Below, in pieces: positions 8,134 to 36,313 of a stretch of 36,394 nt of DNA. Source of the DNA: an uncultured bacterium (GTDB taxonomy: Bacteria > DAOPZR01); assembly GCA_964637655.1 (NCBI GenBank), contig CAZWUZ010000005.1, positions 1 through 36,394 on the forward strand. The letters are read 5' to 3'. The position numbers and the translations under genes were made by a program. Below the pieces are notes generated by a model that was not told the DNA's origin, did no database searches, and saw only the letters and a list, made by a program, of their open reading frames with translations. Every line of letters starts with the position of its first letter. Position 1 is the first letter of the stretch.

Positions 8134-8141
8134 GCTACACC

Positions 8142-10774: not shown

Positions 10775-10842
10775 TAGTACTAGAAAACGGGACGAGGTTC
10801 ATATCAGGCTATGGCCACATTCGCGATGGAAGCTAGACGGTC

Positions 10843-12515: not shown

Positions 12516-12526
12516 AGGAGCAGAGT

Positions 12527-12583: not shown

Positions 12584-12608
12584 ACCGCAAAACACTTAGG
12601 GAGTGATT

Positions 12609-20243: not shown

Positions 20244-20269
20244 GGCGATTACACCGCCTTTCAGTATGA

Positions 20270-20308
20270 CTGTATTAAGATGATAGTACAGATACAAGAG
20301 GTTGTCAA
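20270..20308 (-). promoter_or_regulatory. Sigma-70 promoter with overlapping palindromic GntR operator
   Basis: Minus strand TTGACA (20308-20303), 17 nt, TATCAT (20285-20280). The palindrome CTGTATTA-N6-TAGTACAG (20270-20291) overlaps the -10. Confidence 0.85.
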
Positions 20309-20372: not shown

Positions 20373-20681
20373 TCACATCCCGAGTTCCTCCCGCAATGCC
20401 GCTGCCCGCCTCGCCAGCCCGGCCTCGACCGGCTCGCTGCTCGGCTCCCTGTACTCTGCCGTCCCGTCCTCGAGCTTGACGACACAGCGGAGCAGCGTCT
20501 CGACCAATTCGTCGTAGGTGCCGATGTCTTCTAGCGACAGCAGAACCTCAACATTGAGTGGGTCGTTCTTGAGGAAGCCCCGATAGCCGACAAGTCCATT
20601 GCTCAAGTGGACCGTCACCGGCATCTCTAATCGTGCCTCAATCTTTTCCACTAGCTCACGAAACTCGGTATATTCTCCCAT
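20373..20681 (-). CDS. Hypothetical protein (102 aa)
   Basis: ATG preceded by GGGAGGAA; co-oriented downstream of clpP. Confidence 0.65.
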   Translation of the reverse strand: MGEYTEFRELVEKIEARLEMPVTVHLSNGLVGYRGFLKNDPLNVEVLLSLEDIGTYDELVETLLRCVVKLEDGTAEYREPSSEPVEAGLARRAAALREELGM

Positions 20682-20702
20682 GATATTCCTCCCTGTGATT
20701 TA

Positions 20703-21311
20703 TTATGCCCGAGCCAATGGCTCGACAGCCGGCGCCAACACCTTGTCAATCAGTCCGTACTCCAATGCTTCTGTCGCGGAGAACCACTTGTCTCGGTCGA
20801 AATCTGCCGCGACCTTTTCCGCGGTCTGCCCGCACGCCGCCGCAATCATCGCGTTCAGCCTCGCCCTGGTCTTGAGCACGTGTTCCGCAGCGATAACGAC
20901 ATCGCTCGCCTGACCCTGCACCCCGGTAAGCGGCTGATGCAGCATCACTTCACAGTTCGGCATCACCGACCTATGCCCCCTCTGGCCCGCGCAGGCGAGC
21001 AGCACGGCGCCCATGCTGGCGCAGCACCCCCAGCCAATAGTGCTGATGGGATTGCTGATGGACTTGCACACGTCAACCATCGCGAGCCCGTCGGACACGC
21101 TGCCTCCGGGCGAGTTGATGTAGATGGTGATGCGCCGATGCGGGTCTCGGGAGCTTATGTACATGAGCTGCGCACCAAACGCATGACTCATCTCCGTGGT
21201 TATGGCACCGGAGACGAGGACGACACCGTCATCCAGCAACTCTTCTGATATGCCACCCCGGCGCTCGGCCTCGCTGCGCCTCAGAACGCGAATCCCATGT
21301 GGTGCTGTCAT
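20703..21311 (-). CDS. clpP: ClpP-family serine protease subunit
   Basis: IYINSPGGSV; CASMG (Ser); MLHQP (His); DRDKWFSATEALEYGLID (Asp region). Confidence 0.92.
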   Translation of the reverse strand: MTAPHGIRVLRRSEAERRGGISEELLDDGVVLVSGAITTEMSHAFGAQLMYISSRDPHRRITIYINSPGGSVSDGLAMVDVCKSISNPISTIGWGCCASMGAVLLACAGQRGHRSVMPNCEVMLHQPLTGVQGQASDVVIAAEHVLKTRARLNAMIAAACGQTAEKVAADFDRDKWFSATEALEYGLIDKVLAPAVEPLARA

Positions 21312-21622
21312 TGGTCTCTCCTTTCTTCACCACCGAAGAGGCGCGTATATATCAACGCTTCTGCCCGAATGGCCTCCATTTCCACCGGGTCAGGCTGGGT
21401 GGGCCGACGCTCCGCATCCGGCTTCGGAAATACTGGTTGGATGGCGAAGTCCGTTCGCAACTCGTCCCGCATGTCGCTCGGCGCATCCGTCTGCTTAGGC
21501 GTGGCCTTCTCATTGTGTTGCTCCTTTGATTTGATATTCTGCGGCGTGGGCATGCGGATAAGCACGCGCGGCTGTGCCTGCTGCGTTTGCCGCAATATCC
21601 ACAAATCATTCCGAGTTTTCAT
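21308..21622 (-). CDS. Hypothetical protein (104 aa)
   Basis: ATGA overlaps at both ends: with the ATPase stop and with the clpP start. Confidence 0.6.
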   Translation of the reverse strand: MKTRNDLWILRQTQQAQPRVLIRMPTPQNIKSKEQHNEKATPKQTDAPSDMRDELRTDFAIQPVFPKPDAERRPTQPDPVEMEAIRAEALIYTRLFGGEERRDQ

Positions 21623-23556
21623 GACTTCGCCCTTTCCGGCTCCACAGACCTGCTGAGCGAAGCGATATCGACGACTCTGATTCCATCGGCGAACCGCCCC
21701 GGGAGAACAACGCAAAGCGTAGCCTCTTCGCGGTCATGCAGATTACCCCGATGCATGGTCGTCGCGGTCATTACGACCGTCACCTTGCTTAGGTCAGCGA
21801 TATCGTGATATTTGCCGTACTGCACCCGCCTTCCGGAGATAATGGGGAGGAGGCCCTCATACAGGCGGCTCGTGGGCGATATTGGGTCATCCGACAAGGC
21901 GTCCGCGTCGTCAACGAATACAACGCTGTGCTCGATGCGTGAGCGGTCAAAGGAGCAGACCTGCGCGACCCTTTCTACGACGCTGTCGGGTCGGTCGTAC
22001 TTACCGGCATATATGAGGCAGGGAATATCCTTCATCAAGCATTCTGCGTGCAGGTCCTCGAGCATGCGGCTTTTCGAGCTCTTGGCATCGCCGGCTATGA
22101 CAAGGCGATTACCTTTGCCGTCCGGGAGCAGGTGTCCGAGTACGCTCTGTATCTTATTGACAAGTTCGGAAACATCGCGGGCGGCCATGGCCGCGGCATA
22201 ATCCCAACTGGCGAACACGGGGCCGAGTTCGATGAGCGCTGGGGCAGGTTTCCTGTCCGTATATAGCACTGCCTCAAACGCGCGCAGTTTAGGAATGCAG
22301 TCGAGGTCTCGCATGCCTTTGCCGTTCAGGAGCGCGACCATTCTGGGCGTGAGCGTTTGTTGCAATAGCACCATGTTTTGAAAGTTTTGCAGCAAGTTCG
22401 ATACAGTCTCGACACTGTTCGCGCCAGCAACACTATATAGTGCACCGATTTCTTGAGTTGCGCACATCATGCCCGCGCTCGCCTGCCGACAGAGGGCGGC
22501 AAACTGGTCATCCGCGCCGACCTTGCCGCCGAGGGTCGCAAAGTTCTGGTATTCGTCGGCGACGAGAAAAACGGGACGAGGCGCATTTTGTACGTCAGTC
22601 CCGAGGCGGCGCATGACCGAGTCGTAGAATTGCGACTTGAGGACGAGCCCGATGAAGCGGGATACCTCGCCAAATTCACAAGTAGGCATATTTAGAACGA
22701 CGATATGGCCCTCGTTAACGATATCGGCGATGCTTGTCGCGTGCTTGTCGTCCGGTGTTGGGCAGAAGACCCGCTTGAAATGATACCCGGAGAAATCCTT
22801 CAGGAATCTGGCGACTTCGGCCTCGATGGAGGTGCGGACGCGGCAGTCCATGTTGCTATAGCGAGAACTTGCCTTAAGCAGATAGTCGTGGTTGTGCTGC
22901 TCTTCCGGAGTGGCATGTTGGTTGCTCTCATGACGTATCTCAATCTTGTTGACCATCATCGAGATGTCATCCATCTGCCCGATTAGCTCGAAAATGTCGG
23001 TCGGGCTGACGACCGCATCCAAGTCCCCGAGATACATCCGCACCAGGGTGATGAGGAACTTGATGAGCTCTTGACCGCTGTCCTCCCAGAAGCTGTCTCG
23101 CGTGTTACGGCCGCCAACTATGGTATGGACGGCGGTAACGATGCCACTTGCCATAGTCTCCGCGGCAAGGCCGCGCGGGAACAGATGGATGGCGCGGTTG
23201 CCACGCGGACTGATTTCGATGACGTCGGCTTCGCGACCGACAAGCGAGGCCCAACCCCGGAGATAGGGCAGCAAGTCGCCCTTTGCGTCCAGAACGAGCG
23301 CGCCGCAGCGTCGAGGATGCGTGACGATGAACCGCAAAAACGGTTTGATGGCGCCTGCGGTCTTGCCGGAACCTTTACCGCCGCTGACGAGCGTGTTGAG
23401 GAATAGCTCCTCGCCCTCAAGGAAATGAAACACGTCGGACTGGCCAACGCTGCGCCCGACCGGAAAGCGCAGCGCTTCCTCAGTGTGTACTTCCCGTCCA
23501 CGGCTCATTGGTGTCTTGCCCGCATCGGTTGCATTGATAGTCGTTCGCGTAGCCAT
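21619..23556 (-). CDS. VirD4/TraD(TraG)-like P-loop ATPase (FtsK-HerA superfamily), no N-terminal membrane anchor
   Basis: NTLVSGGKGSGKT (Walker A); LVLDAKGDL; FLVADEYQNF (Walker B); RQ...ATQ. A second, degenerate P-loop-like segment follows (LVIAGDAKSSKS ... VVFVDDAD). Confidence 0.85.
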   Translation of the reverse strand: MATRTTINATDAGKTPMSRGREVHTEEALRFPVGRSVGQSDVFHFLEGEELFLNTLVSGGKGSGKTAGAIKPFLRFIVTHPRRCGALVLDAKGDLLPYLRGWASLVGREADVIEISPRGNRAIHLFPRGLAAETMASGIVTAVHTIVGGRNTRDSFWEDSGQELIKFLITLVRMYLGDLDAVVSPTDIFELIGQMDDISMMVNKIEIRHESNQHATPEEQHNHDYLLKASSRYSNMDCRVRTSIEAEVARFLKDFSGYHFKRVFCPTPDDKHATSIADIVNEGHIVVLNMPTCEFGEVSRFIGLVLKSQFYDSVMRRLGTDVQNAPRPVFLVADEYQNFATLGGKVGADDQFAALCRQASAGMMCATQEIGALYSVAGANSVETVSNLLQNFQNMVLLQQTLTPRMVALLNGKGMRDLDCIPKLRAFEAVLYTDRKPAPALIELGPVFASWDYAAAMAARDVSELVNKIQSVLGHLLPDGKGNRLVIAGDAKSSKSRMLEDLHAECLMKDIPCLIYAGKYDRPDSVVERVAQVCSFDRSRIEHSVVFVDDADALSDDPISPTSRLYEGLLPIISGRRVQYGKYHDIADLSKVTVVMTATTMHRGNLHDREEATLCVVLPGRFADGIRVVDIASLSRSVEPERAKS

Positions 23557-23658
23557 TTTGTCGTCCCCCTATCTATAGGGAGACACGGATGGTATCGCGG
23601 GAAAACAAAAGTGGCCTTGGCGCTGAGGAATTACGTACAACCCCGATATTACCGCGAG

Positions 23659-24612
23659 TTACCGCATCGGCACCTGGGGCTCGTTGTTGTTGTCCTGCAC
23701 CCCACGCGAGACGAAATCGCGCAGTAGCGCCACGACCTGCCGGACGCGCAGGAGGAGAAGCAGCCCGCCCATGCGCGTGGGATGCTCGCGCATGCCCTGC
23801 GCCGCGGCAACCCAGTCGACTTGGCTATCGCTCACGAGGATTTTGTCGCACGTGCCCCACGCGTCGGAGTCCAGCTTGATGTTGGAGATGGCCGCCGCGG
23901 TCTGGATGAGCGGCGTGCGGGCCTGCCTGCGGTGATGCGCCAGGAGCAGGTCCACGAGCAGCAATCTTTTCAGCCCCGGTTCCGCGAGGTCGCCGGCACC
24001 TATCTGCAGCATCTCCGGAACGGTCACATGCTTGCGATGCCGCCCATCGTCGTCCGGCAAGGGAAGCGGGGGCAGCGTCAAGCCGGGGAGCCTGACCGCA
24101 AGCGCGCGTTCCATGACGGCGTAGACCTCGGCTTGCAACTGGCCGATTCTACGGGGTGTCACGTTGAGCACGCCGGCGATTTCGTCGCGCGACTTGCCGT
24201 CGAGCGTGAGATTATAGACCTCCCGCTGGCGGTCGGTCAGGTTGGCCACGGCTCTTTCTACATCGATGAAGAGGAGAATGCTGTCCTCCGGGGATGGCGT
24301 TATTGCCGCGCGTTCGGCGGTTTCGGTATCGAAAATCACGACTTTCCTGCGCGGCTGCTTCTTCGTTTTCGCCTGCTCGGGTGCAGAGGTGGCCTCGTCG
24401 TAATGTTCCTCGGCTACCTGTTTCGCAATTTCGACCGGGTTGAGGTCCTTGGCAGCCAATCCCGCGCGTTTGGCGAACGAAGATACTGCATGCCTCAGGA
24501 TGGTCAACATGAGACCAGAGTCCAAACCTATGGTCTCGGCCAATTGCCCTGCTATGTGCCCTGCTATGCCCGGCTTCGCGGAGCTGATACACCAGTTCTT
24601 GTTGGTAATCAT
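23659..24612 (-). CDS. Sigma-70 region-4-type HTH protein with extra C-terminal domain
   Basis: SPEDSILL...AVANLTDRQREVYNLTLDGKSRDEIAGVLNVTPRRIGQL. Confidence 0.75.
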   Translation of the reverse strand: MITNKNWCISSAKPGIAGHIAGQLAETIGLDSGLMLTILRHAVSSFAKRAGLAAKDLNPVEIAKQVAEEHYDEATSAPEQAKTKKQPRRKVVIFDTETAERAAITPSPEDSILLFIDVERAVANLTDRQREVYNLTLDGKSRDEIAGVLNVTPRRIGQLQAEVYAVMERALAVRLPGLTLPPLPLPDDDGRHRKHVTVPEMLQIGAGDLAEPGLKRLLLVDLLLAHHRRQARTPLIQTAAAISNIKLDSDAWGTCDKILVSDSQVDWVAAAQGMREHPTRMGGLLLLLRVRQVVALLRDFVSRGVQDNNNEPQVPMR

Positions 24613-24613
24613 G

Positions 24614-25096
24614 CTATCCCTCCTGTGTGGTATTCATGTCTTCCTCGGCGCGCCGGAGCACGCGCGCGATGCCCGTCTCGTCGCCCGCGCTGACGACGCG
24701 CATGGCCATACGCAGGGCCTCGCCCAAGTCGGCGAACTTGAACTGCGTCTTGGCCTTGACGCGCAGAAGCGACTGGTATTCGCCGCGGCCGGCTTTGTCG
24801 GTGATGCGCAGCAGGTTAACCACATATCCCGTTCCCCTGAGGAAGACATATACTTCGATAGTGCGGACACCCCCGGCGGCCCGGGAGAACTCGCGGAATA
24901 CGCGAAGGCCTTCGGCCTCGACGAACGGGGTGTCTTCCATCGCCATTTGGGCTGACAACTTGCCAATGGCGACCATGACCGGGTGGCCGGATACGAGCGC
25001 AATCCACCTATTGTCGGGCGGCTGCTTGCCCAGCCAGCGACATTTGATGCCCCCACTCTCGAGTAGGTCCTGCAGGTCCGCCTGCAACTTGAACAT
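24614..25096 (-). CDS. Hypothetical protein (160 aa)
   Basis: AGGAGG RBS; 1-2 nt gaps to both neighbours. Confidence 0.7.
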   Translation of the reverse strand: MFKLQADLQDLLESGGIKCRWLGKQPPDNRWIALVSGHPVMVAIGKLSAQMAMEDTPFVEAEGLRVFREFSRAAGGVRTIEVYVFLRGTGYVVNLLRITDKAGRGEYQSLLRVKAKTQFKFADLGEALRMAMRVVSAGDETGIARVLRRAEEDMNTTQEG

Positions 25097-25098
25097 GG

Positions 25099-25626
25099 TT
25101 ACTGCCTCCTAGTCCTGAAGAATCGTTCCTCGTGCGCCAGGGCACGGAGCTGCGCCAGCAGCCTCGCCGGCACCGGTTGCCTTGTTTCCTCGGCAACAGC
25201 CAATATTAGGCGACCACGGAACCAGATTATCGAGTTGAGAAGCCGCTTTTGCCAGATAGCGTTGACGCTCCACCGCGACCGTTCGCGACCGAAACGCTTG
25301 AAGAAGCACGCCAAACTGATGCGGATATTCACGTCCGAATCCGCAAGGATTCGCGCCATTTTCTTTCGGCTCGCCCGGTATCCCGGGTCGTCTGTAAGGC
25401 ACGGAACAAGGTCCTTCCGGGAGGCCAATGAGATGCCATGCTCCACCATCGCGGTCATGTTAGGGTACGAGGGCAATGCGGGCACGACGACCTCGACGCC
25501 GCCCTCGCCCTCGTACACTTGGCCCTTGGTGTGCTGGCCGAGCAGGGCGCGCGTGTGGGAACTGAGCCGCAAATTGAGTCGGCCCCCGCCTTTCGCGGGC
25601 CGCCCTGACTTGCCCTTGCCGTTCAT
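25099..25626 (-). CDS. Hypothetical protein with an N-terminal ribbon-helix-helix-like motif (175 aa)
   Basis: ATG 25626 after AAAGGTG; RLNLRLSSHTRALL alternating strand followed by a helix. Confidence 0.6.
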   Translation of the reverse strand: MNGKGKSGRPAKGGGRLNLRLSSHTRALLGQHTKGQVYEGEGGVEVVVPALPSYPNMTAMVEHGISLASRKDLVPCLTDDPGYRASRKKMARILADSDVNIRISLACFFKRFGRERSRWSVNAIWQKRLLNSIIWFRGRLILAVAEETRQPVPARLLAQLRALAHEERFFRTRRQ

Positions 25627-25838
25627 ATCCGACACCTTTCTGTATGTATGGTAATGGCTTTATATATCCAGCAGGATAGTCCCCACGCGGCATTCGTGAA
25701 AACGTCATATTTCGCACATATTTTCCAGGCGGCACTGGCCGCGCCTGCCCGGACGTCACGGCGGTTCCAGACAGCGGTCATCCGGCCGGCATTCGCCGGG
25801 TCGGCATCATCCCGTCCGGGTACGCGCGCGTCGGTCAT
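25623..25838 (-). CDS. Possible small protein (71 aa)
   Basis: ATGA overlaps at both ends fill the gap in the operon exactly; no recognisable motif. Confidence 0.4.
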   Translation of the reverse strand: MTDARVPGRDDADPANAGRMTAVWNRRDVRAGAASAAWKICAKYDVFTNAAWGLSCWIYKAITIHTERCRI

Positions 25839-26431
25839 GCCGAGTACCTGTCCGCTGCCATGTGCTTGAGGAGCGCTATGACCTCAAAACAAGCGCCATA
25901 CGCGCCACGGCAGGAGTCGAGGGGACTGTGCGTCTCGAAACGGCGGCACAAGTCCCCGGTACCGCGAAATGGGGCGTACGCCAACATGGCGCATCCCACC
26001 TGGAAGATTCCCTGCGGGTACTGGCCGTGGCGAAAGCACTGGGACCAGCAGTACTCGAGGGTATCGCGGTGGTAGGCGGCGTCGTACGCGACGACGGGCC
26101 GGCCGCAGACCAACCGGGCAAGACGCGGAGCGACTTGCCTGAACGTCGGCGCTTTCGCGACCATTTCGTTCGTGATGCCGTGCACTTCGGTCGCGTCCTC
26201 CGAAATGGGAAACTCGGGCCGGACGAGCGTGTCGAGCAGGGGCCTGCCGTCAATGGCCATGACCGCTATCTTCACGGCCTCGTTGTAGATATCCCGGCCG
26301 TTTCCATCGATGTTGATGACGACCGTCGGCTCGGCGAGCATCCATCGCGCCCACGCGGCCGCGCGCTCGCGCTCATCGAAGCGGTCCAGAGCGGCCTTGA
26401 TGTACATGTTAATTTCCCTGTCGGTTTTCAT
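25835..26431 (-). CDS. DnaQ/DEDDh 3'-5' exonuclease-fold protein with degenerate active site (198 aa)
   Basis: LLDTLVRPEFPISEDATEVHGITNEMVAKAPTF is typical of DnaQ-like proteins; the Exo I, II and III acidic residues are altered. Confidence 0.85.
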   Translation of the reverse strand: MKTDREINMYIKAALDRFDERERAAAWARWMLAEPTVVINIDGNGRDIYNEAVKIAVMAIDGRPLLDTLVRPEFPISEDATEVHGITNEMVAKAPTFRQVAPRLARLVCGRPVVAYDAAYHRDTLEYCWSQCFRHGQYPQGIFQVGCAMLAYAPFRGTGDLCRRFETHSPLDSCRGAYGACFEVIALLKHMAADRYSA

Positions 26432-26988
26432 GGCATGACCTCCTCGTTGATATTGGCGAAGCCGTCCTCCGGCTCCGGCATTTCGGTAGGCGGAAAGTCC
26501 GCCAAAATGGTAGGCGGATTGCGCTCTGCGAGGGCATCGACGACCAGGCCCCCGGTGGCCTGATGGAGCATCCTGGCGCCCGCGGCCAGCGCCGCGCTCA
26601 GGGAGGTCGTCCAGACGTCGTGACGACCGTTGTTGCATGCGCGCAGGGGGATGCGCCTGACCTCGTGCCCGGGGACCTCCTGACGCAGGGTCAGGCCAAG
26701 CAGCTCATAGGCGACCGCGGCGAGGCAGGATATGCGCACCTCCACGGCGACCACGCCTTCCTCCGGCGCAAGGATGCCGTCGTCCGGATATTGCTTATCG
26801 AGCACGAGCACGGGGCTGGAATCGGCGAAGCGGGGCCATGCCACGCCCAGCAGCACGGTCGTATCATGCAACTTGACCGTGACCAGCTCGCCACGCACGA
26901 GCCGCTCGCACTCGTCCGCGGTGAACTGGCCCTGTTCCGCAATTAGCCACAGTTCGTCCTCAAGTACGCTTATCGCTGTATCCCTCAC
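26428..26988 (-). CDS. Hypothetical protein (186 aa)
   Basis: GTG start after GGAGG; GTGA and ATGA overlaps with both neighbours. Confidence 0.65.
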   Translation of the reverse strand: MRDTAISVLEDELWLIAEQGQFTADECERLVRGELVTVKLHDTTVLLGVAWPRFADSSPVLVLDKQYPDDGILAPEEGVVAVEVRISCLAAVAYELLGLTLRQEVPGHEVRRIPLRACNNGRHDVWTTSLSAALAAGARMLHQATGGLVVDALAERNPPTILADFPPTEMPEPEDGFANINEEVMP

Positions 26989-27740
26989 AGTTGCACCTCC
27001 TGATTGACCTGGGACTTGACCCAGGCATGTTCGGCGGGCGCGTTGGCCTGCGCGCCGACCCCGGGAGCGGACATGCCCCGGAGCATATGCTGAGCAACGT
27101 CGGCGTAGGAATCCGCTGATATGCCCGCTGGCATACCCGCATTGGCTTCAACGGGGCCATCCCTTGGGCTTACCGTGGACGTACCGCTTACGATATCGCC
27201 GGGCGCTTCGTGCAGCCCCAGCCGGCGCATATAGCCCGCCAGCCTCACCTCATGGTCGCCCTTGACCGGGGCAAAGGCACGTTCCGCGAGCGAGCCGACC
27301 TGCGCGACGGTCTGCGCGTCACGTCCGGACGCACACCAGGCGTGAGAACGCGCCGGGGCGGGGGAGGACGCCGGGGGAACGGTGCTGTCGGGAGAGGTAT
27401 ACTCGCCGCGGGATGTACCACGGAATGCGGCATCGGGCGCTTCCGGACGAGGGGTCAAGGCTGCGCCCGTGGGGGATGGGGCATGATGGATGTTGACCAC
27501 GGATACGCTAAGGCCATCACCCGCAGGCCAGACGCGCCGGAGACCCTGCGGTGCTGCCTGGCGAAGGGATAGGGGCTCTATGGAGGGATGACCCCCACTG
27601 AGCGCCGAGACGACAGGGGATGACACCTCAGGAACGGGCTCCGACAGCGCCTGCAGCAGCACACCAGCAACGCCGGCATGCGCAGGAACGGGCACGGGGG
27701 AACGGCCGACAGGCACACGGCTCACGGACGTGCTGGCCAT
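26985..27740 (-). CDS. Pro/Ala/Ser-rich, probably disordered protein (251 aa)
   Basis: ATG 27740 is 1 nt after the HUH gene stop; low-complexity sequence. Confidence 0.5.
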   Translation of the reverse strand: MASTSVSRVPVGRSPVPVPAHAGVAGVLLQALSEPVPEVSSPVVSALSGGHPSIEPLSLRQAAPQGLRRVWPAGDGLSVSVVNIHHAPSPTGAALTPRPEAPDAAFRGTSRGEYTSPDSTVPPASSPAPARSHAWCASGRDAQTVAQVGSLAERAFAPVKGDHEVRLAGYMRRLGLHEAPGDIVSGTSTVSPRDGPVEANAGMPAGISADSYADVAQHMLRGMSAPGVGAQANAPAEHAWVKSQVNQEVQL

Positions 27741-27741
27741 T

Positions 27742-28272
27742 TCAGTGCGCCGGGGGCTCATCGTCGTTCGGGGGCGGTTCATCGCCGCCCACCGGCTCGC
27801 TCCGGCGCCACCGGGCGGGCATGTCGTCGTCGTTCGGCGGGGGAGCGTCCGGGTCGTCCGCATCCCTGCGCGACCGCCAGTCGTGGGTCACACCCGGAGG
27901 GAGAATCTGGTCGTCCAGGTACTCGCTGATGCGCTGGATGTCAGCCTCACCGTGGAGGGGCTCGATATGCAGGAACCCTCCGGACACCTCGTGCCAATGC
28001 CTACGCATGACGGAGTTGCTGACCAGCTCGCGGAACTCGGCCAGCGTGTGGAGGTGCAGCTTCTCTCCCTTCGTGCCTTTCTTGCGGTTGCCCACGCTCG
28101 GAACGGTGTGGAAGCTGACGATACCACCCGCACGGTCCAAGCGCTGACGGAACAGTTTCAGCTTGTACGCCGCCTTTTCAATCGGCACGTACCTGTCCGG
28201 GAAACCGAATACCAGGTGATTGGTACGCGACGGACCAGGTGGCTCGGGCCACTTCCATGTTCGTTTCACCAT
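27742..28272 (-). CDS. Small HUH endonuclease, rolling-circle Rep-like (176 aa)
   Basis: Strong RBS GAGGGAGG; motif I-like HLVFGF; motif II KLHLHTL; conserved W..G; motif III-like ISEYL; acidic Pro-rich tail. Confidence 0.65.
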   Translation of the reverse strand: MVKRTWKWPEPPGPSRTNHLVFGFPDRYVPIEKAAYKLKLFRQRLDRAGGIVSFHTVPSVGNRKKGTKGEKLHLHTLAEFRELVSNSVMRRHWHEVSGGFLHIEPLHGEADIQRISEYLDDQILPPGVTHDWRSRRDADDPDAPPPNDDDMPARWRRSEPVGGDEPPPNDDEPPAH

Positions 28273-28275
28273 GAC

Positions 28276-28461
28276 CTATACCTCCCTCTCGTTGGATGTC
28301 TGCACTGGGATGCCAACCCCTACAGAGACACCTACACCTTCTATCAAGAATGCCTTTCCCTGTTGAGATAGACAGAACAACCGCCTGTGGCAATTGCAGG
28401 TTGTGCCGTTGGCTTCGCCACACCCGCGTGCTTCGGCGTGCTTCATCTTCCTATAATCCAT
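28276..28461 (-). CDS. Small Cys-containing protein (61 aa)
   Basis: GGAGGG RBS; CGEANGTTCNCH...C; ends 3 nt before the HUH gene start. Confidence 0.45.
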   Translation of the reverse strand: MDYRKMKHAEARGCGEANGTTCNCHRRLFCLSQQGKAFLIEGVGVSVGVGIPVQTSNEREV

Positions 28462-28675
28462 ACCAACCATCCCTCCATCCGGCGCACGCAAATGCGCGCG
28501 CGTAATTCGCCACGGCATAGCCGGGCGAGCACTACTACGTCACCATCAACAAACTGCTATTCAGTTGTAAGGGTTGACTGACCCACGGGGTCGCCGAAAG
28601 CGCCGACGAGGAAAAACGTGCCGTGCAGTTAAGCCTGCAGGTCGCCTCGCCGGCAATAACCATTACTGTTAGTGT

Positions 28676-28686
28676 ATTATACCACA
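28676..28686 (-). promoter_or_regulatory. Extended -10 promoter for the leftward operon
   Basis: TGTGGTATAAT on the minus strand, the same 11-mer as at 5570-5580 on the plus strand. Confidence 0.55.
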
Positions 28687-28807
28687 AATCAAAGATTATT
28701 TCCTGCCCTATACTCATGACAACTCCCGATTCTGCACGTACATTATCATCGTTGTTCCCATCGCTGAAGTACCTTCTTCGTGCCGCCCGTCCCGCAAGGC
28801 AATCCCC

Positions 28808-28900
28808 GCCCGCAGCAACCTGCCCGACGCGGTCAGGAGCGGCGATATGGATTGACGGAGGTTCGGCCATATCGGGCTTGTGCGGGAGTTGCTGACGGGC
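28808..28900. repeat. Nested imperfect inverted repeat (long stem-loop)
   Basis: GCCCGCAGCAAC (28808-28819) pairs with GTTGCTGACGGGC (28888-28900); inner CGATATGG (28843-28850) pairs with CCATATCG (28867-28874). Confidence 0.6.
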
Positions 28901-29111
28901 GTGGGCGGGTCGTGGTTCTGGTCGCTCGTTGGGGGACTGGCACGCCTGGCGGGCGTGGGCGGCGGCACGGGGCGCGCTGCTGGATGGCGTGGTGGCCGTC
29001 CCGTACGATGCGAGAAATATTTTCGGTAAATCGGCAGATATCTGCAACGCGGAAGCAGAATGACGTGTATAAGGTGGGTAGGACGAGCAGTATAAGGGCG
29101 CGTGTGCAGCG

Positions 29112-29140
29112 TTGAACTTTGTTCCGTGGGATAGTATGAT
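29112..29140 (+). promoter_or_regulatory. Sigma-70 promoter of the defence cluster
   Basis: TTGAAC (29112-29117), 17 nt, TATGAT (29135-29140); 15 nt upstream of ATG 29156. Confidence 0.7.
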
Positions 29141-29155
29141 GCACTCGGGAAAAGG

Positions 29156-30718
29156 ATGACTATGGCATTGCCGATAAGCTGGGAACATCTCGTCGCCGGC
29201 AAGACGGTGGAATGGGAGCACATCGAGTTCAAGACGGGCTGGAATCCCCTGGCCGTCATGCATACGGTGTGTGCGTTCGCCAACGACCTGAACAACTGGG
29301 GCGGGGGCTACATCGTCATCGGGGTCGCGGAGAAGAAGGGACGTCCCGTGCTGCCTCCGGCTGGTGTGCCCGCGGGGGACATCGACCGCATCCAGAAGGA
29401 ACTGCTTAATCTGTGCCATCAGCTGCGCCCGCAGTACTTCCCCGTGGTCATGCCCGTGACGGTCAAGCGGAAGCACATAATCGTTGTCTGGGCGCCAGGC
29501 GGCCAGAACCGCCCGTACAAGGCGCCCGACGGCTTGGGCAAGAACCCGACGTACCATTACTACGTCCGGCGGCTGTCCAGTACGGTCCGCGCGCGGAATG
29601 GCACGGAGCGCGAGCTGCTGTCGCTCGCGGCGACCGTTCCCTTCGACGACCGGGTCAACCATCACGCGAAGCTGACGGACCTCCAGGTAGGCCTGATACG
29701 CGAGTACCTCCAGCAGACGGGAAGCGACCTGTTCGAGCCCGCGGCGAGGATGTCCTTGGCCAGGCTGGCGCGCCAGATGCGCATCGCCGACGGTCCGGAC
29801 GAGGACCTGCATCCGCTCAACGTTGGGCTGATGTTCTTCAATGACAAGCCCGAGCGGTTCTTCCCGGATTCGCGGGTCGAGGTGGTGCGTTTCCGCGGTA
29901 CGCCCGGGGACGACGAGATGAGCGAGGCGGTGTTCGCGGGTCCCGTGCATAGGCAGATACGCGACACGATGCAATTCATCCGGAGCACCGTACTGACCGA
30001 GCGGGTGCGCAAGGTCGCGGACCGGGGCGAGTCCGAGCGGTTCTGGAACTACCCGTTCGTCGCCGTCGAGGAGGCCCTGGTCAACGCGCTGTACCATCGG
30101 GGATACGACACGCGCGAGCCGGTCGAGGTCCGCATCCATCCCGACCGCATCGAGATAGTGAGCTATCCGGGTCCCGACCGGTCGGTGACCATGCGGGATA
30201 TCGCCAAGGGGCATATCGTCTCGCGTCGGTACCGGAACCGGCGCATCGGCGAGTTCCTCAAGGAGCTCGACCTGACCGAAGGCCGGGCCACGGGCATTCC
30301 GAAGATACAGAAGGCGCTCAGGGCCAACGGCTCGCCGGCGCCGAAGTTCAGCACCGACAGCGGACGTTCGGCCTTCGTCGCCACGATACGCATACACCCG
30401 GACTTCGTTGCCCGACCTGAGCCGGTGGCAGTCGCCCCCGACAAGACGGCTATCGACCGCGTGGTTGCGGTCATCAGGGGACAAGTTAGGAAACAAGTTA
30501 GGGAACAAGTTAGGGAACAAGTTGTTTCGGTATTGGAGTACTGCCGGGAACCGCGTGGGCGGAACGATATTCTGAAGCATATCGGGGTAACCCCGCTCTA
30601 CAAGAACTTCCGGAAACGCCTGCAGCCGCTCATCGACGCCGGGCTGTTGCGCCTGACGGTGCCGGACAAGCCGCGGAGTAGGAATCAGCGGTATGTGACT
30701 GTACAAACAAAAAAGTGA
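29156..30718 (+). CDS. Schlafen/AlbA_2 domain + HATPase-like (RecG C-terminal-like) + C-terminal wHTH protein
   Basis: EWEHIEFK...VCAFANDLNNWGGGYIVIGV; EEALVNALYHRGY; YRNRRIGEFL...EGRATGIPKI; PLIDAGLLRLTVPDKPRSRNQRY. Confidence 0.9.
   Translation: MTMALPISWEHLVAGKTVEWEHIEFKTGWNPLAVMHTVCAFANDLNNWGGGYIVIGVAEKKGRPVLPPAGVPAGDIDRIQKELLNLCHQLRPQYFPVVMPVTVKRKHIIVVWAPGGQNRPYKAPDGLGKNPTYHYYVRRLSSTVRARNGTERELLSLAATVPFDDRVNHHAKLTDLQVGLIREYLQQTGSDLFEPAARMSLARLARQMRIADGPDEDLHPLNVGLMFFNDKPERFFPDSRVEVVRFRGTPGDDEMSEAVFAGPVHRQIRDTMQFIRSTVLTERVRKVADRGESERFWNYPFVAVEEALVNALYHRGYDTREPVEVRIHPDRIEIVSYPGPDRSVTMRDIAKGHIVSRRYRNRRIGEFLKELDLTEGRATGIPKIQKALRANGSPAPKFSTDSGRSAFVATIRIHPDFVARPEPVAVAPDKTAIDRVVAVIRGQVRKQVREQVREQVVSVLEYCREPRGRNDILKHIGVTPLYKNFRKRLQPLIDAGLLRLTVPDKPRSRNQRYVTVQTKK
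30481..30523 (+). repeat. In-frame 12-bp tandem repeat (about 3.6 copies)
   Basis: ACAAGTTAGGAA ACAAGTTAGGGA ACAAGTTAGGGA ACAAGTT, encoding QVRKQVREQVREQV. Confidence 0.9.
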
Positions 30719-30760: not shown

Positions 30761-31504
30761 ATGTTCTATGAAAAGTTAAATGAACAACAAACGGTTGACC
30801 GTAATAAAATACAAAGCGATATTCAGAAAATGTTCGCAAAGAATCTGAAACCAATTCGCTTCGGTAGAAATAGAAGGTTTAATCTGAACAAAAATACAAG
30901 GGCGTTGGAAGCACATGCGGTCCATCGATTGTTAAACGAATGGTATGAAATTATTCGGGACCAATTCTACGCAATTGTTCAAGAACACATGGATGCGCTA
31001 TGTTATTACGAATGGCATAAAAAACATTATGGTGCTGGAACCGAGATAACATATTTGGTTGTCAGCCAGAATGCCTTACAGAATGCAATCGTTCGCCTGT
31101 GCTCGCTCATTGATGTGGTTGCCCAATTAATCAATACGAGGTATCACTATTATCAAAATGAAAATGAGGTCGATAGGGCTAAGATAAAAGAAGCGTTGAG
31201 ATTAACAAATAGACGCGCTCTATTGTCGATTTTGAATGACTTGGATAGCGAAATTGGTAAAATTAGGAAATGGAGAAATACGGCGATTCATCAGGGAAAA
31301 TTCACATTGTATCCGACTCCAAAAATGGATGTAAGAAGGCGGAATGGCCGAATTGTCGGCGCTGGGTTTGGGATGCAAAAGGGGATTGAACCCCACAGAG
31401 TTTTCCAACAGGTATTTCAAACGATTAAAAAGGTAAATGCCATTTTGCCCAAACTTGTAAAATACATGAATAGCTCAATAACAAATATCAGGAAATCAAT
31501 ATAG
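30761..31504 (+). CDS. HEPN-domain protein (Cthe_2314-like putative RNase)
   Basis: NAIVRLCSLIDVVAQLIN helix; RxxxxH motif WRNTAIH; AT-rich gene. Confidence 0.75.
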   Translation: MFYEKLNEQQTVDRNKIQSDIQKMFAKNLKPIRFGRNRRFNLNKNTRALEAHAVHRLLNEWYEIIRDQFYAIVQEHMDALCYYEWHKKHYGAGTEITYLVVSQNALQNAIVRLCSLIDVVAQLINTRYHYYQNENEVDRAKIKEALRLTNRRALLSILNDLDSEIGKIRKWRNTAIHQGKFTLYPTPKMDVRRRNGRIVGAGFGMQKGIEPHRVFQQVFQTIKKVNAILPKLVKYMNSSITNIRKSI

Positions 31505-31517
31505 CGGAGACGAGTGA

Positions 31518-34226: not shown

Positions 34227-34235
34227 GAGCTGAGT

Positions 34236-35633: not shown

Positions 35634-36313
35634 TGATTGTCAAATCGAGTGAAACTGTTGCCGCACATATTTCCAATGGGGCGTGGTTGGTTTATGTGGA
35701 TGCGTGTGTCCTGAAAGATGGTATTCAGAGCGTAACCAGAGCAGTGCCTGTGCCGAATGCCGGCATATATAGAATTGCAGATATCCATACGCGTGATAGG
35801 ATAAAGGAAAAACCCGGGCAAGAAGCCAAGCTACGCGAGTTGGATTCATTGCCGAAAATTGCCGAGCTGGCGAAAATGGGAAAAATCGTGCTCATCTGTC
35901 AGTTTGAAATGATTCAAGAATTACTTGGCACTGTAACCATTGGCCCAAGAAAAAGCTGTTTTGATGACGTGGAAATTGTAGAAGTTGAAGCACCGATACA
36001 GTATTCTCGTTTTTTAACTGGTCCAAACCAAAACGCGGCGGAAATTCAGTATAACTTCATGTGCCAGATTAAGAATAAGCGCTTTCAGGAATTGCAGAAA
36101 GCGACAGGCGCCTTTCAAGGGAATAATGCCTTGAATAGAAATCAGCTTGCAGACGCATTCCATATCTGGTGCGCTGAATTTAACCAAGCCGAGTATTTCC
36201 TGACGATGGATTTCAAATTGATTAACATCACTAACAGTCAGAAAACCAATAAGCCAAAAGTAAAGGTGGTCCGCCCCACGACTTTGATAGAAGAGATTGC
36301 TAATGCAGCATAG
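35633..36313 (+). CDS. PIN-domain-like protein
   Basis: VYVDACV (first Asp); LADAFHIWCAE; YFLTMDFKL; TAATG overlap with hsdM; AT-rich. Confidence 0.65.
   Translation: MIVKSSETVAAHISNGAWLVYVDACVLKDGIQSVTRAVPVPNAGIYRIADIHTRDRIKEKPGQEAKLRELDSLPKIAELAKMGKIVLICQFEMIQELLGTVTIGPRKSCFDDVEIVEVEAPIQYSRFLTGPNQNAAEIQYNFMCQIKNKRFQELQKATGAFQGNNALNRNQLADAFHIWCAEFNQAEYFLTMDFKLINITNSQKTNKPKVKVVRPTTLIEEIANAA

Follow-up and report, generated by a model that had tools for sequence, protein, structure and literature searches.

What kind of genetic unit is a long operon that joins a candidate replication initiator, an ATPase resembling conjugative coupling proteins and a ClpP paralogue, and that lies beside defence genes? 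We analyzed this question in a 36,394-nt stretch of an uncultured bacterium of the GTDB lineage DAOPZR01 (contig CAZWUZ010000005.1, GCA_964637655.1), hereafter called the window. A sequence-only reading had placed a rolling-circle integrative or virus-like element at 20373-28686. Our tentative answer, with a probability of roughly 0.4, is that this operon forms the conserved backbone of genomic islands, plasmid-like or mobilisable, that belong to a rare family not described before and carry a novel ATPase-ClpP module.

Operon layout and control region

The operon comprised 13 co-directional ORFs on the minus strand, running from 28518 to 20373, one or so more than the 12 first estimated. The 4-nt ATGA/GTGA overlaps reported earlier were present, although we counted six instead of five (g11/g10, g10/g09, g09/g08, g08/g07, g04/g03 and g03/g02). 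Most other junctions were indeed short, with gaps of 1-3 nt at g13/g12, g12/g11, g07/g06 and g06/g05, and only the g05-g04 and g02-g01 spacers were longer, at 102 and 21 nt. All ORFs were intact and tightly coupled, and they were conserved at 45-90% amino acid identity across contigs from different samples. Transmembrane segments were found in none of the operon proteins. On the right, the limit at 28686 proved too narrow, as conserved DNA continued to about 29143 and a linked gene ended at 30718. The non-coding features were as follows.

23557..23658, minus strand: conserved 102-nt spacer between g05 and g04, aligned across six loci
28559..28673, minus strand: structured 5′ leader of about 95-115 nt, conserved in the window, L001, L168 and L167
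28686-28676, minus strand: operon promoter with extended −10 TGTGGTATAAT, kept in L001 and L168
28779..28962, no strand assigned: GC-rich non-coding block with repeats and a hairpin (CGATATGG...CCATATCG)
29043..29143, plus strand: divergent promoter block, TTGAAC-17-TATGAT at 29112-29140 (promoter scan)

The control region of ~470 bp thus contained two conserved divergent promoters. The promoter proposed ahead of the operon was borne out by sister loci, where the extended −10 followed the consensus (C/T)G(T/C)G(A/G)TATAAT across L001 and L168. The leader had been overlooked before. Its alignment contained 29 pairs with 95.7% of cells paired, and seven pairs showed compensatory changes; none of 500 shuffles reached these values, and slid controls were 30-51% paired. 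Conserved G-U pairs pointed to the sense strand, and the compensatory changes imply purifying selection on regulation. No Rfam family matched the leader, and no further copy was found in 178 kb of compared loci. Within the operon, the g05-g04 spacer carried the palindrome CCCTATAGATAGGG ahead of the ribosome-binding site.

The GC-rich block, a candidate operator or origin region, showed 75% identity to L001 996-1183 and an ssDNA fold z of −3.4. It contained 17-nt direct repeats at 28892-28908 and 28946-28962, which were not kept in L168. The upstream region did not covary with the swapped first gene described below, which argues against a Rep-specific origin. The divergent promoter block was 80% identical to L168 777-877, and it drives a defence set that differs among the window, L168 and L001.

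29156..30718, plus strand: Schlafen/AlbA_2 - HATPase_c_4 - Fic-like-C protein (Pfam), first gene of the divergent operon
30761..36313, plus strand: rest of the divergent operon, variable defence cargo (HEPN_Cthe2314, type I hsdR, hsdM and a 226-aa ORF)

As the sequence-only reading had stated, the cluster abuts defence genes (Pfam, PADLOC). That reading had missed that these genes share the conserved control region of the cluster. The first of them matched PADLOC pAgo-associated models (4e-19), and hsdR and hsdM gave REase_I at 1e-103 and MTase_I at 1e-168; intergenic gaps were 42, 13, 9 and −1 nt. The ribosome-binding site and first 14 codons of the Schlafen gene recurred at the left end of L168 (85% nucleotide identity, N-terminus MALPISW(E/Q)H), where a PD-T7-4-like gene was inserted between this gene and the promoter. 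In L001, an AbiJ-like gene occupied the divergent-operon position.

The exchangeable first gene and the middle genes

The promoter-proximal and middle part of the operon encodes the following proteins.

28276..28518, minus strand: g13, ORF up to 80 aa with Gly/Val-rich tail, start uncertain
27742..28272, minus strand: g12, candidate HUH initiator by motifs only, 176-aa orphan protein
26985..27739, minus strand: g11, about 251 aa, Pro/Ala/Ser-rich, probably disordered
26428..26988, minus strand: g10, 186 aa
25835..26431, minus strand: g09, degenerate DEDDh (DnaQ-like) exonuclease, 198 aa, optional insert
25623..25838, minus strand: g08, 71-aa ORF with ATGA overlaps on both sides
25099..25626, minus strand: g07, 175 aa, N-terminal GRPxKxGG-LxxRLS stretch read as RHH-like
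24614..25096, minus strand: g06, 160 aa
23659..24612, minus strand: g05, DNA-binding protein, 317 aa, central sigma-70 region-4/LuxR-type HTH

The HUH endonuclease assigned earlier to g12 retained its motif pattern but gained no family, homology or fold support. Its motifs NHLVFGFPD, KLHLHTLAEF and ISEYLD were kept in P0008 (63-67% identity), the single relative among 5.8e9 and 1.8e9 proteins, whereas searches of families, the PDB, a representative library and folds gave no match. In a low-confidence model, unusable as support, the first two motifs fell on strands and the Tyr lay in a helix. In L170, the ORF ahead of the g12 homologue had the same end, a 3-4-nt gap and a G/V/S-rich tail similar to that of g13.

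Sister loci carry another family at the first position. All four of their first genes matched PF23343 REP_ORF2-G2P below threshold (best E 0.015) and had invariant FxTxTF, H and Y motifs in common, and g12 was unrelated to this Rep-like family by BLASTP and hhalign. The downstream genes were retained: in the first ORF of L001, 861 aa long, the stretch after the Rep-like domain was 42% identical to g11 and the C-terminal part 41% identical to g10. The start of g11 at MAST, 2 nt past the g12 stop, coincided with an ORF start in L170. Thus, the first gene has been exchanged between unrelated families, while g11/g10 were kept. Beyond the motifs of an orphan protein, the term rolling-circle had no backing except a sub-threshold G2P-Rep match of the non-homologous first gene in sister loci, and we do not retain it.

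The description of g09 as a degenerate DnaQ was confirmed by PF00929 RNase_T (32 bits), PHROG_192 (1.5e-16) and PADLOC DEDDh (1.8e-15), with ExoII substituted from HNAAFD to YDAAYH in the alignment and, by eye, ExoI reading NID where DxE was expected. Within the long ORF, translation actually starts at Met70, giving the ATGA overlap with g10. The gene was absent from L001/L002, in which g08 directly followed g10; g08 itself was 48% identical over 58 aa at the same position in L001. For g07, 57-63% identical in L001, L088 and L168, the RHH-like assignment found no Pfam or PDB support and was a motif reading. No family matched g06, which showed 59% identity in L001 and 26% in L088. By contrast, the sigma region-4 assignment of g05 held, since Sigma70_r4_2 (PF08281) scored 28.9 bits against a cut-off of 25.7; a PHROG sigma factor matched at 3.9e-5, and the PDB profile search returned FixJ and sigma factors at 0.04-0.09. 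All sister loci, even the minimal L167, had the g05 core (aa 83-195).

The two-domain ATPase and its ClpP

The promoter-distal end of the operon contains the ATPase, ClpP and two small genes.

21619..23556, minus strand: g04, two-domain ATPase of 645 aa with no membrane anchor
22309..23406, minus strand: g04 N-terminal domain (aa 51-416), VirD4/TraG-type coupling-protein nucleotide-binding domain
21637..22125, minus strand: g04 C-terminal domain (aa about 478-640), AAA+ large subdomain closest to ClpX
21308..21622, minus strand: g03, linker gene of 104 aa with ATGA overlaps with ATPase and ClpP
20703..21311, minus strand: g02, ClpP paralogue with intact catalytic triad
20373..20681, minus strand: g01, last operon gene, 102 aa

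In g04, we found a nucleotide-binding domain of the coupling-protein type joined to an AAA+ domain that resembles ClpX. The N-terminal part, with Walker A GGKGSGKT and Walker B VADEYQ, was the anchor-less VirD4-like ATPase recognized earlier: PF02534 scored 20.1 bits, exactly its Pfam cut-off, NCBIfam conju_CD1115 matched at 7e-8, far under the family cut-off, and the maximum 19-residue hydropathy was 1.34, with no hydrophobic segment. By tblastn, plasmid TraM-recognition/T4SS DNA-binding proteins were matched (best 2e-20), and a BFVD fold match was annotated 'conjugal transfer protein' (TMq 0.34). Identity to coupling proteins across 143 GTDB loci was 25-29%; the one neighborhood inspected, that of the best locus (L006), lay inside a T4SS cluster amid TrbL, VirB8, TrbI and SLT genes. 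Close relatives numbered only four among 5.8e9 proteins, plus three JGI contigs and one more Logan contig.

The ClpX-like domain had escaped the sequence-only reading. Against the PDB, phmmer returned only ClpX chains (E 0.09), and a five-sequence profile gave ClpX at 7e-4 with Lon next. The ClpX alignment spanned both Walker motifs, with VVFVDDADAL against IVYIDEIDKI of ClpX in Walker B, as well as the pore-1 position, with AGKY against AGYV. Foldseek against the PDB placed ClpX at the top four positions; among the 50 listed, about 45 were ClpX (E 1.4e-6 to 1.4e-4), Lon ranked fifth, and HslU and ClpA were present. The AlphaFold model of g04 was poor overall (mean pLDDT 51.8), and block pLDDT in the C-terminal region was mostly 65-85. 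PF00004 matched below threshold in four of five ATPase family members. The Walker A of the window copy was GDAKSSKS, not GxxxxGK[ST], whereas the L087 homologue had the canonical GKCKSGKT. In a comparison with ClpX by eye, the domain presumably has neither an IGF-type loop nor a small AAA+ domain.

As read earlier, g02 is a ClpP: PF00574 CLP_protease matched over the full length (2.8e-59, ~200 bits), with scores under the NCBIfam ClpP equivalog cut-offs, and g02 aligned end to end with B. subtilis ClpP (3KTI), keeping the Ser of ASMG, the His of HQP and the Asp of DRD. The ATPase, one small ORF and ClpP followed each other in all six contigs reaching that far, and both window junctions were 4-nt ATGA overlaps. 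The linker g03 was 46-66% identical in L001, L004, L166 and L169 and matched no family; g01 was 70-75% identical in L001, L004 and L169 and matched none in Pfam, PHROGs, NCBIfam or PADLOC. A coupling-type ATPase with a ClpX-like domain and its own ClpP had no match as a combination in the databases searched.

Distribution, island context and nature of the cluster

The cluster was known from about ten metagenome contigs only, and searches of GTDB representative genomes, IMG/VR and collections of phages or plasmids did not find it. Among 2.9 million IMG/VR contigs and 50,697 phage records, there was no relative of the ATPase, g07 or the Rep-like protein. The synteny search advised earlier showed a fixed order: exchangeable first gene, g11/g10, (DnaQ), g08, g07, (SNF2), g06, g05 HTH, ATPase, g03, ClpP and g01. 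It was kept in L001, L002, L004, L087, L088, L166, L168 and L169. Of the optional inserts, DnaQ occurred in the window only and SNF2 only in L001, L002 and L088, with a truncated ORF at the SNF2 position in L168. The minimal L167 had three genes and neither ATPase nor ClpP: the Rep-like gene, the g05-like gene and, at the position of g06, a 153-aa ORF lacking BLASTP similarity to g06. The impression of an unfamiliar gene combination was thus correct: it is conserved, syntenic, very rare, and matches no described ICE, prophage or plasmid module.

12379..12517, no strand assigned: left boundary of the variable island, at the stop codon of an M28 peptidase gene

L169 was 96% identical to the window over 8370-11571 and 89% over 12379-12517; past this boundary, it carried different genes and then the cluster at only 70% identity. 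The cluster therefore lies in an exchanged island starting at 12517. Together with its modular make-up and different neighbors, this supports the cluster behaving like exchangeable DNA. The window, L169 and L004 had it in related neighborhoods (DUF1287/RDD), so variability of the island at a single locus accounts for part of the difference between flanks. Against sister loci, DNA homology ended 0-7 nt from the g01 stop codon and included no non-coding terminus, a pattern equally compatible with an element end and with an operon inside an island. We found no integrase, transposase, att repeats or tRNA, the contig ending before the far side of the island, and the label integrative was not upheld. 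As stated before, VirB4, mating-pore, terminase, portal and capsid families had no match in Pfam, PHROGs or NCBIfam, and no T4SS lay beside any cluster relative.

The cluster, or at least its ATPase-g03-ClpP-g01 end, could be a multigene defence or conflict system in a defence island, the main rival reading, which we regard as possible, if rather unlikely. The coupling-protein/HerA-like ATPase would sense invading DNA and switch on a dedicated ClpP as proteolytic effector; the HTH proteins would regulate the system, and SNF2 or DnaQ would be its accessory modules. FtsK/HerA-type ATPases with effectors (Sir2-HerA, DUF4297-HerA) and the Lon-like AAA+ of BREX are precedents. Defence genes occurred on both sides where flanks were examinable (PDC-M50/ThsB, Schlafen, HEPN and type I R-M in the window; AbiJ in L001, PD-T7-4 in L168, PIN in L169 and a kinase in L004), conservation ended exactly at the operon end, and PADLOC gave weak matches to mad8 (6e-8) and DEDDh/PDC-S48. 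Moreover, amino acid identity between the window and L169 was 53% for the ATPase and 90% for ClpP, and such fast evolution of the ATPase is expected of an arms-race sensor. However, no complete PADLOC system matched, 13 co-translated genes headed by Rep-like genes would be unusual, and the nearest ATPase relatives are conjugative coupling proteins, the one context inspected being a T4SS. The minimal L167 keeps the Rep-like and g05-like HTH genes without ATPase and ClpP, indicating that the conserved core is not the putative effector pair.

Less probable still is a decayed or domesticated remnant: the operon would descend from an old plasmid or ICE but have lost its mobility and come under host regulation as an accessory operon. 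It could be, for example, a specialised ClpP protease system that has regulators of its own, sits in a recombination hotspot and is exchanged only when the flanks recombine homologously. The neighborhood shared by the window, L169 and L004, the lack of any recombinase or ends found, the degenerate DnaQ and the degenerate AAA+ Walker A of the window copy are consistent with it, and plasmid- and island-borne ClpP paralogues in non-transfer contexts exist in Bacillota. Nevertheless, 13 intact, tightly coupled and conserved ORFs, the compensatory changes in the leader, and an exchangeable first gene with optional inserts, which indicate ongoing modular evolution, argue against decay. We consider it highly improbable that the cluster is a small virus or a satellite, whether of the ssDNA inovirus/plectrovirus type or of the membrane-containing corticovirus type. 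Its Rep would then be viral, as would the ATPase, acting in packaging, and the ClpP-type protease, acting in maturation, and the hypotheticals would be unrecognised structural proteins; the G2P-type Rep signal of a phage-type initiator family, matches to ClpP-related head-maturation PHROGs (best 6.7e-34), the size (8-10 kb) and the single-strand gene orientation resemble such viruses. However, cellular ClpP matched far better, and the absence of transmembrane segments excludes inovirus-type coat and assembly proteins. A32/FtsK-type packaging ATPases have roughly 200-250 aa, and the 645-aa coupling-protein-type ATPase is unlike these or the Zot type. The virus-like label found no support, as the searches yielded no relatives in IMG/VR, no PHROG structural match and no circular contig among those found.

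We return to a plasmid-like or mobilisable island family, in which optional inserts and an exchangeable first gene are the modularity typical of mobile elements. The rarity and synteny of the cluster, the Rep-like signal of the sister first genes, the coupling-protein ancestry of the ATPase, the exchanged island, the changing defence genes behind a conserved divergent promoter and the ATPase-ClpP link also speak for this reading. The failure to find an integrase, transposase, att repeats, tRNA, circular contig or T4SS beside a relative speaks against it, as do the homology limit at g01, the neighborhood shared by three loci, the motif-only status of g12, the upstream region that does not follow the first gene and, in the ClpX-like domain, the noncanonical Walker A and the presumed lack of the loop and small domain. 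The first gene, g12 here and the G2P-like Rep in sister loci, would be the replication or nicking initiator, and g07 and g05 may bind DNA as regulators of this initiator or as factors accessory to it. Having no membrane anchor, the coupling-protein domain would engage the element DNA or an initiator-DNA complex, either for replication or for hand-over to the mating pore of a helper element, in the manner of mobilisable elements equipped with a coupling protein of their own; elements of this kind, encoding both VirD4 and Rep-type relaxases, have been documented (PMC5704250). The ClpX-like domain with g03, g01 and ClpP may form an element-specific ATP-dependent protease that removes DNA-bound proteins such as the used initiator, a repressor, or restriction subunits of the host or cargo. 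The hosts of this element family are probably uncultivated anaerobes of the Bacillota.

Conserved operon and its control region

The 13-gene cluster, for which a sequence-only reading had proposed a new rolling-circle integrative or virus-like element, was largely real as reported, and that interpretation was supported in part. The window is a complete contig of 36,394 bp. ORF calling gave 13 co-directional ORFs on the minus strand, running from 28518 to 20373, with g13 first and g01 last. When junctions were counted from ORF starts supported by relatives, six 4-nt ATGA/GTGA overlaps joined g11/g10, g10/g09, g09/g08, g08/g07, g04/g03, and g03/g02; the remaining operon junctions were four gaps of 1–3 nt, a 21-nt gap, and a 102-nt spacer that is conserved. 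Long forms of the g09, g11, g07, and g03 ORFs were dropped, since internal starts create the overlaps and agree with the relatives. The features to which we refer are listed below.

Features of the operon and of its upstream region
28686–28676, minus strand, operon promoter TGTGGTATAAT, read from the sequence
28559–28673, minus strand, structured leader of ~100 nt, found in four loci
23557–23658, minus strand, 102-nt spacer before the ATPase gene, conserved in six loci
28779–28962, no strand assigned, GC-rich block with 17-nt direct repeats and a hairpin; repeats not conserved in the sister contig L168
29043–29143, plus strand, second, divergent promoter block, from a promoter scan

Several gene calls were confirmed. 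The g02 product matched the ClpP family PF00574 at 2.8e-59, and its catalytic Ser, His, and Asp align with those of B. subtilis ClpP (3KTI). The sigma region-4 HTH call for g05 also held (28.9 bits against a cut-off of 25.7), and a PDB profile search with g05 gave weak sigma/FixJ HTH matches only. The g09 product was borne out as a degenerate DnaQ-like exonuclease, in which the ExoII residue is substituted, as is that of ExoI when read by eye. The RHH reading of g07, whose RHH identity is unproven, derives solely from an N-terminal motif, and a PDB profile search with g07 returned no match.

Conserved synteny was then found across metagenomes, where the gene order is kept, the content is modular, and the family is rare. 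Close relatives of the ATPase g04 numbered four in a 5.8-billion-protein collection (55–76% identity), with three more in JGI metagenomes and one in a Logan contig (L169); none was present in 185,579 GTDB representative genomes, IMG/VR, INPHARED phage records, or PLSDB plasmids. Distant ATPase relatives were examined at 160 loci, and no other cluster gene accompanied any of them. Source samples of the relatives include ERZ28564009, ERZ909592, SRR22388008, and SRR22388314. The fixed order is first gene, g11/g10, (DnaQ), g08, g07, (SNF2), g06, g05, ATPase, g03, ClpP, g01, in which the DnaQ insert occurs in the window only and the SNF2 helicase insert in three sister contigs (L001, L002, and L088). 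L168 has a truncated ORF of no assigned family in the SNF2 position. The contig L087, truncated on both sides, retains HTH, ATPase, small ORF, and ClpP, and L167 consists of just three genes: one Rep-like, one g05-like, and, where g06 would stand, a 153-aa ORF that BLASTP does not relate to g06. Within the 102-nt spacer (23557–23658, minus strand), a T-run follows a short GC stem, and a palindrome, CCCTATAGATAGGG, adjoins the ribosome-binding site. This spacer may be an internal attenuator or operator that divides the regulator half of the operon from its ATPase–ClpP half.

The leader contains 29 base pairs with 95.7% of cells paired, and seven of these pairs show compensatory changes. None of 500 shuffles attained the observed values, and slid controls were 30–51% paired. 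Conserved G-U pairs indicate that it is most simply an RNA of the sense strand. It matched no known family in Rfam, and a covariance model found no further copies in the 178 kb of loci searched. The covarying 5′ leader is a candidate for a new cis-regulatory RNA.

DNA homology to L001 and L168 runs on upstream of the operon promoter. The 17-nt repeats were considered as iterons and rejected as an inconsistent feature, being present in the window and L001 and missing from L168. The divergent promoter drives a tight operon of Schlafen/AlbA_2, HEPN, hsdR, hsdM, and a 226-aa ORF. At the edge of L168, the ribosome-binding site and first 14 codons of the Schlafen gene reappear, with a PD-T7-4-like gene between promoter and gene; in L001, an AbiJ-like gene occupies the Schlafen-gene position. 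These gene swaps indicate that the defence cluster fills a slot for changing cargo, controlled by a conserved promoter of the element itself. Thus, the earlier claim that the element abuts a defence cluster was right in that defence genes adjoin it, but these are not separate, being driven from the element's conserved divergent promoter. This defence hotspot, the structured leader, and the ClpX-like domain of the ATPase wired to ClpP had all been missed in the sequence-only reading. Within the Schlafen/AlbA_2 gene, at its 3′ end (30476–30523, plus strand, 48 nt), we also observed three overlapping copies of 24 nt, repeated with a period of 12 nt (AGGGRACAAGTT), which encode a short peptide repeat just ahead of the end of a Fic-like C-terminal domain.

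A coupling-protein ATPase with a ClpX-like domain, encoded next to ClpP

The 645-aa g04 product had been described as a coupling-protein-like ATPase, and this call was confirmed: residues 51–416 are homologous to VirD4/TraG, without a membrane anchor. The PF02534 score of 20.1 bits equals the family cut-off exactly, and scores across families lie at or below their thresholds. The best tblastn match (2e-20) was to plasmid TraM-recognition proteins; identity to coupling proteins is 25–29%, and both Walker A and Walker B are there. Matches were to VirD4-type families, not to FtsK/SpoIIIE. The nearest GTDB relative (L006, 29% identity) lies in a T4SS cluster among TrbL, VirB8, TrbI, and SLT genes in the one neighbourhood inspected, which points to a conjugative ancestry of g04. 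No N-terminal transmembrane anchor was detected in g04, whose maximum 19-residue Kyte-Doolittle mean is 1.34 and whose N-terminus is polar. No T4SS genes were found in the window or in the contig of any close g04 relative, and no VirB4-, VirB6-, VirB8-, or VirB10-type genes were matched in the window. Compared with VirD4/TraG/TrwB coupling proteins, g04 shares the homologous nucleotide-binding domain and a helical insertion at the all-alpha domain site, whereas it differs in having no N-terminal transmembrane domain, no T4SS nearby, and a C-terminal AAA+ fusion. The best plasmid relative of its N-terminal domain is a 649-aa "TraM recognition domain" protein of Agarilytica rhodophyticola plasmid pSU3 (NZ_CP021747.1, 18972–20921). 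The gene and the end of a site-specific integrase gene overlap, the plasmid is typed as non-mobilisable, and the protein is a further coupling-protein homologue away from a T4SS.

Residues ~478–640 of g04 form an AAA+ domain, for which ClpX is the best match in both sequence and fold. A single-sequence phmmer search of the C-terminal domain against PDB returned ClpX chains only, weakly (E 0.09), and a five-sequence profile placed ClpX first (7e-4) and Lon next. The ClpX alignment spans Walker A, the pore-1 position (AGKY versus AGYV; GKYD in g04 against GYVG), and Walker B (VVFVDDADAL versus IVYIDEIDKI). The AlphaFold model of whole g04 was poor (pLDDT 51.8), and only its C-terminal domain, with block pLDDT mostly 65–85, was usable. 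A Foldseek search of this domain against PDB gave ClpX as the top four matches (E from 1.4e-6) and about 45 of the best 50 matches listed, with Lon at rank 5 and HslU and ClpA also present. PF00004 was matched below threshold by four of the five ATPase family members. The AAA+ Walker A reads GDAKSSKS, a non-canonical form, in the window and GKCKSGKT, the canonical form, in L087, the most divergent homologue. By eye, ~18 residues separate a sensor-1-like TATT from an LPGRF motif, and the protein ends ~25 residues further on. Read by eye against what we take to be the ClpX architecture, g04 is without the IGF-type ClpP-docking loop, the small AAA+ domain, and the zinc-binding N-domain; no zinc-finger motif is present.

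The ATPase is linked to ClpP through the 104-aa g03 by ATGA overlaps, and the order of ATPase, one small ORF, and ClpP was kept in each of the six contigs long enough to show it. The window ClpP has a complete Ser-His-Asp triad and shares ~45–50% identity with Bacillota ClpP. The cluster resembles ClpXP in its intact-triad ClpP and in a ClpX-matching AAA+ domain encoded next to it. It differs in that only the large AAA+ subdomain is present, at the end of a coupling-protein ATPase, with g03 interposed, in the ClpX elements that g04 lacks by eye, and in the non-canonical Walker A of the window. Literature searches turned up no coupling protein that is fused to, or paired with, Clp components, and we know of no such case for a Clp unfoldase. 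Protein identity between the window and L169 was uneven (ClpP, 90%; g01, 74%; g03, 64%; ATPase, 53%). Such differences suggest that the operon is mosaic through recombination or else that the ATPase evolves much faster. ClpP paralogues are commonly carried on plasmids of Bacillota (166 PLSDB records, 59 from Bacillus). Two such loci, on a B. cereus plasmid (NZ_AP022888.1) and a Paenibacillus plasmid (NZ_CP013207.1), were inspected for a similar partner ATPase and set aside, their contexts being unrelated; ClpP there lies beside spoVA/ger genes or a sigma factor, without a partner ATPase.

The first gene and the island setting

Motifs of g12 (NHLVFGFPD, KLHLHTLAEF, and ISEYLD) fit the HUH pattern, although HUH identity is unproven. 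Its HLH (residues 73–75) and Y118 are kept in its single relative, and the predicted order of secondary structure is compatible with HUH. A structure-based check of the HUH claim was abandoned: AlphaFold2 on g12 and this sole relative gave an unusable model (pLDDT 39.5), for which Foldseek found no match. That relative was the only one among 5.8e9 proteins in a word-index search; a full HMMER search of 1.84e9 representatives found no homologue, and neither a family match nor a PDB phmmer match was obtained. The first genes of the sister loci belong to a family unrelated to g12, so the first gene is exchangeable. All four sister first genes gave sub-threshold matches (best E 0.015) to PF23343, a family of G2P/ORF2 replication proteins, and they have invariant FxTxTF, single-His, and Tyr motifs in common. 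A kinship of g12 with this Rep-like family was sought with BLASTP and hhalign and gave no signal. In L001, the Rep-like domain is fused to a g11-like stretch, indicating that g12 stands where the Rep domain stands elsewhere. A role for g12 as initiator is thus suggested by position, not directly. No oriT, nick site, or origin was identified.

The comparison with L169 defined one side of the island. This contig is 96% identical to window positions 8370–11571, and identity is 89% over the M28 peptidase gene's terminal 139 bp, but past the M28 stop codon (12517) it has different genes, and the cluster DNA is only 70% identical. These results indicate that the cluster lies inside a variable island exchanged between close relatives. 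Window 11572–12378 corresponds to L169 7694–7702, the near-identical L169 strain being without 807 bp of the M28 gene, of which only the final 139 bp is left, beside the island boundary. The RDD gene further out is common to L169 and L004. Since several contigs represent one chromosomal neighbourhood, to speak of different flanks overstates the number of independent insertions. Homology to the sister loci breaks off only a few bases from the g01 stop codon. Downstream of g01, L004 (5653–6944) encodes a Ser/Thr kinase, next to which lies a NucS-C-like gene by a weak match (E 0.08), and L169 (2913–4659) gave a faint PIN-domain match; such conflict-type genes indicate that the downstream side of the cluster is also a variable slot.

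No integrase, transposase, or other recombinase domain was found in the window ORFs scanned, on a contig that ends at 36394, before the far side of the island. Neither att direct repeats flanking the cluster nor tRNA genes were found in the window up to that end, and a search for a circular form gave no circular contig. The parallel drawn with an AICE-type core was not borne out: there is no integrase and no RepSA match, and the ATPase is VirD4-type, not FtsK/SpoIIIE.

Other parts of the contig were also surveyed. Directly inside the island boundary, a gene pair (12603–13474, plus strand) matches the PADLOC candidate PDC-M50 (PDC-M50A, 2e-52; ThsB-like TIR/PDC-M50B, 2.5e-57), with no ThsA-like partner seen. 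The operon at 13733–20297 (minus strand) begins 75 nt after g01 with its own TTGACA-17-TATCAT promoter and is absent from L169; a GntR regulator and an ABC ATPase stand at its head, an ABC-2 permease also belongs to it, and two of its ORFs, of 672 and 1002 aa, are very large and match neither Pfam nor PADLOC. At 5777–10774 (plus strand), a radical-SAM/SPASM enzyme and a 488-aa protein with no reliably assigned domain come after two proteins that have a Cu_amine_oxidN1 domain; this segment, conserved at 96% in L169, may be a peptide-modification locus. A 682-aa ORF without Pfam match (3318–5366, plus strand) spans a segment of 71% G+C, especially at 4001–5000; the contig mean is 57%, the adjoining kilobases have 43–47%, and the left third is compositionally very patchy.

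Competing readings and their meaning

The reading that we prefer, at a probability of about 0.42, is that the cluster forms the backbone of a plasmid-like or mobilisable island of a kind not yet described. Bacillota IMEs and mobilisable elements with their own VirD4 and Rep-type (non-canonical) relaxases are documented (PMC5704250), and the initiator-first operon, the DNA-binding accessories, the coupling-protein homologue of its own, and the missing mating pore of the cluster parallel them. Small size and a variable island with cargo are further likenesses. The cluster differs from those IMEs in that no integrase or att site is visible and no helper element is known, the ATPase is anchor-less with an extra ClpX-like AAA+ domain, ClpP is translationally coupled, and the initiator is an orphan (G2P-like in the sister loci) rather than MobT, Rep_2, or a canonical Mob. 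Modular inserts and a cargo hotspot are typical of mobile elements. In such an island, the initiator would nick the element DNA, the ATPase would pass it to the pore of a helper element, and the ClpX-like domain with ClpP would degrade a DNA-bound protein. The cluster varies known kinds (a mobilisable island and a Clp protease) and is not demonstrably a new category.

A multigene defence system is possible but doubtful. Ring ATPases of the broad FtsK/HerA superfamily are paired with effectors in the defence systems Sir2-HerA and DUF4297-HerA, and BrxL of BREX is a Lon-like AAA+ protein; a ring ATPase with a separate effector enzyme in a defence island would be the likeness here. A defence system is favoured by the surrounding defence genes, by the sharp boundary of the operon, and by the fast evolution of the ATPase. 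However, those systems differ from a 13-gene operon headed by Rep-like genes, the minimal version of the cluster is without the ATPase, and ClpP is, to our knowledge, the effector of no catalogued defence system. No complete PADLOC 2.0 system was found in the cluster, which gave isolated weak matches only (mad8, 6e-8; DEDDh/PDC-S48). The MADS lead from mad8 was set aside, the match being weak and the preprint text without domain information on mad8. A domesticated remnant is rather unlikely, and a virus or satellite highly improbable. With the replication modules of rolling-circle plasmids and inoviruses/plectroviruses, in which a G2P-type Rep goes with small RHH/HTH copy-control proteins, the cluster shares a candidate initiator in first place, a strong promoter, a structured leader, upstream repeats, and small DNA-binding proteins downstream, and the sister loci consistently match PF23343, although below threshold; yet the first gene of the window is unrelated, there is no nick site or circular form, and many extra genes are present. 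The virus-like element of the sequence-only reading is contradicted by every viral search: we found no PHROG structural match, no IMG/VR or phage relatives, and no transmembrane or recognisable structural proteins in the cluster. Neither coat or capsid genes nor a Zot- or A32-type assembly/packaging ATPase, as an inovirus/plectrovirus or corticovirus-like provirus would carry, were recognised.

The ATPase also invites a reading of its own, although an unlikely one. As a chimeric motor, g04 would combine a coupling-protein DNA-dependent ATPase with a ClpX-derived unfoldase and, with g03, g01, and a dedicated ClpP, would form a DNA-guided protease that strips and degrades DNA-bound or translocating proteins. 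It would serve either restriction alleviation or establishment, on a mobile island beside type I R-M and other defence cargo of its own, or act as a proteolytic effector against incoming DNA. The restriction-alleviation version has a precedent in host ClpXP, which degrades HsdR during translocation and is required for the acquisition of type IA/IB systems (PMC12707154).

If the island-backbone reading holds, the cluster would represent a new family of small island-forming elements whose built-in hotspot shuffles type I R-M, Schlafen/HEPN, AbiJ, and PD-T7-4 genes under one conserved promoter, and this hotspot would be useful for understanding how defence islands assemble in uncultivated anaerobes. 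The ATPase–ClpP module is of wider relevance. Both coupling proteins and Clp unfoldases are ring motors that have been studied in depth, and a DNA-guided protease of this kind, if true, would be the first built on a conjugative coupling protein. A DNA-guided ClpP would tie DNA transfer or sensing to targeted proteolysis, and would open to testing a suggestion from the R-M literature, by which mobile elements come with ClpXP-like activities of their own for the management of restriction.
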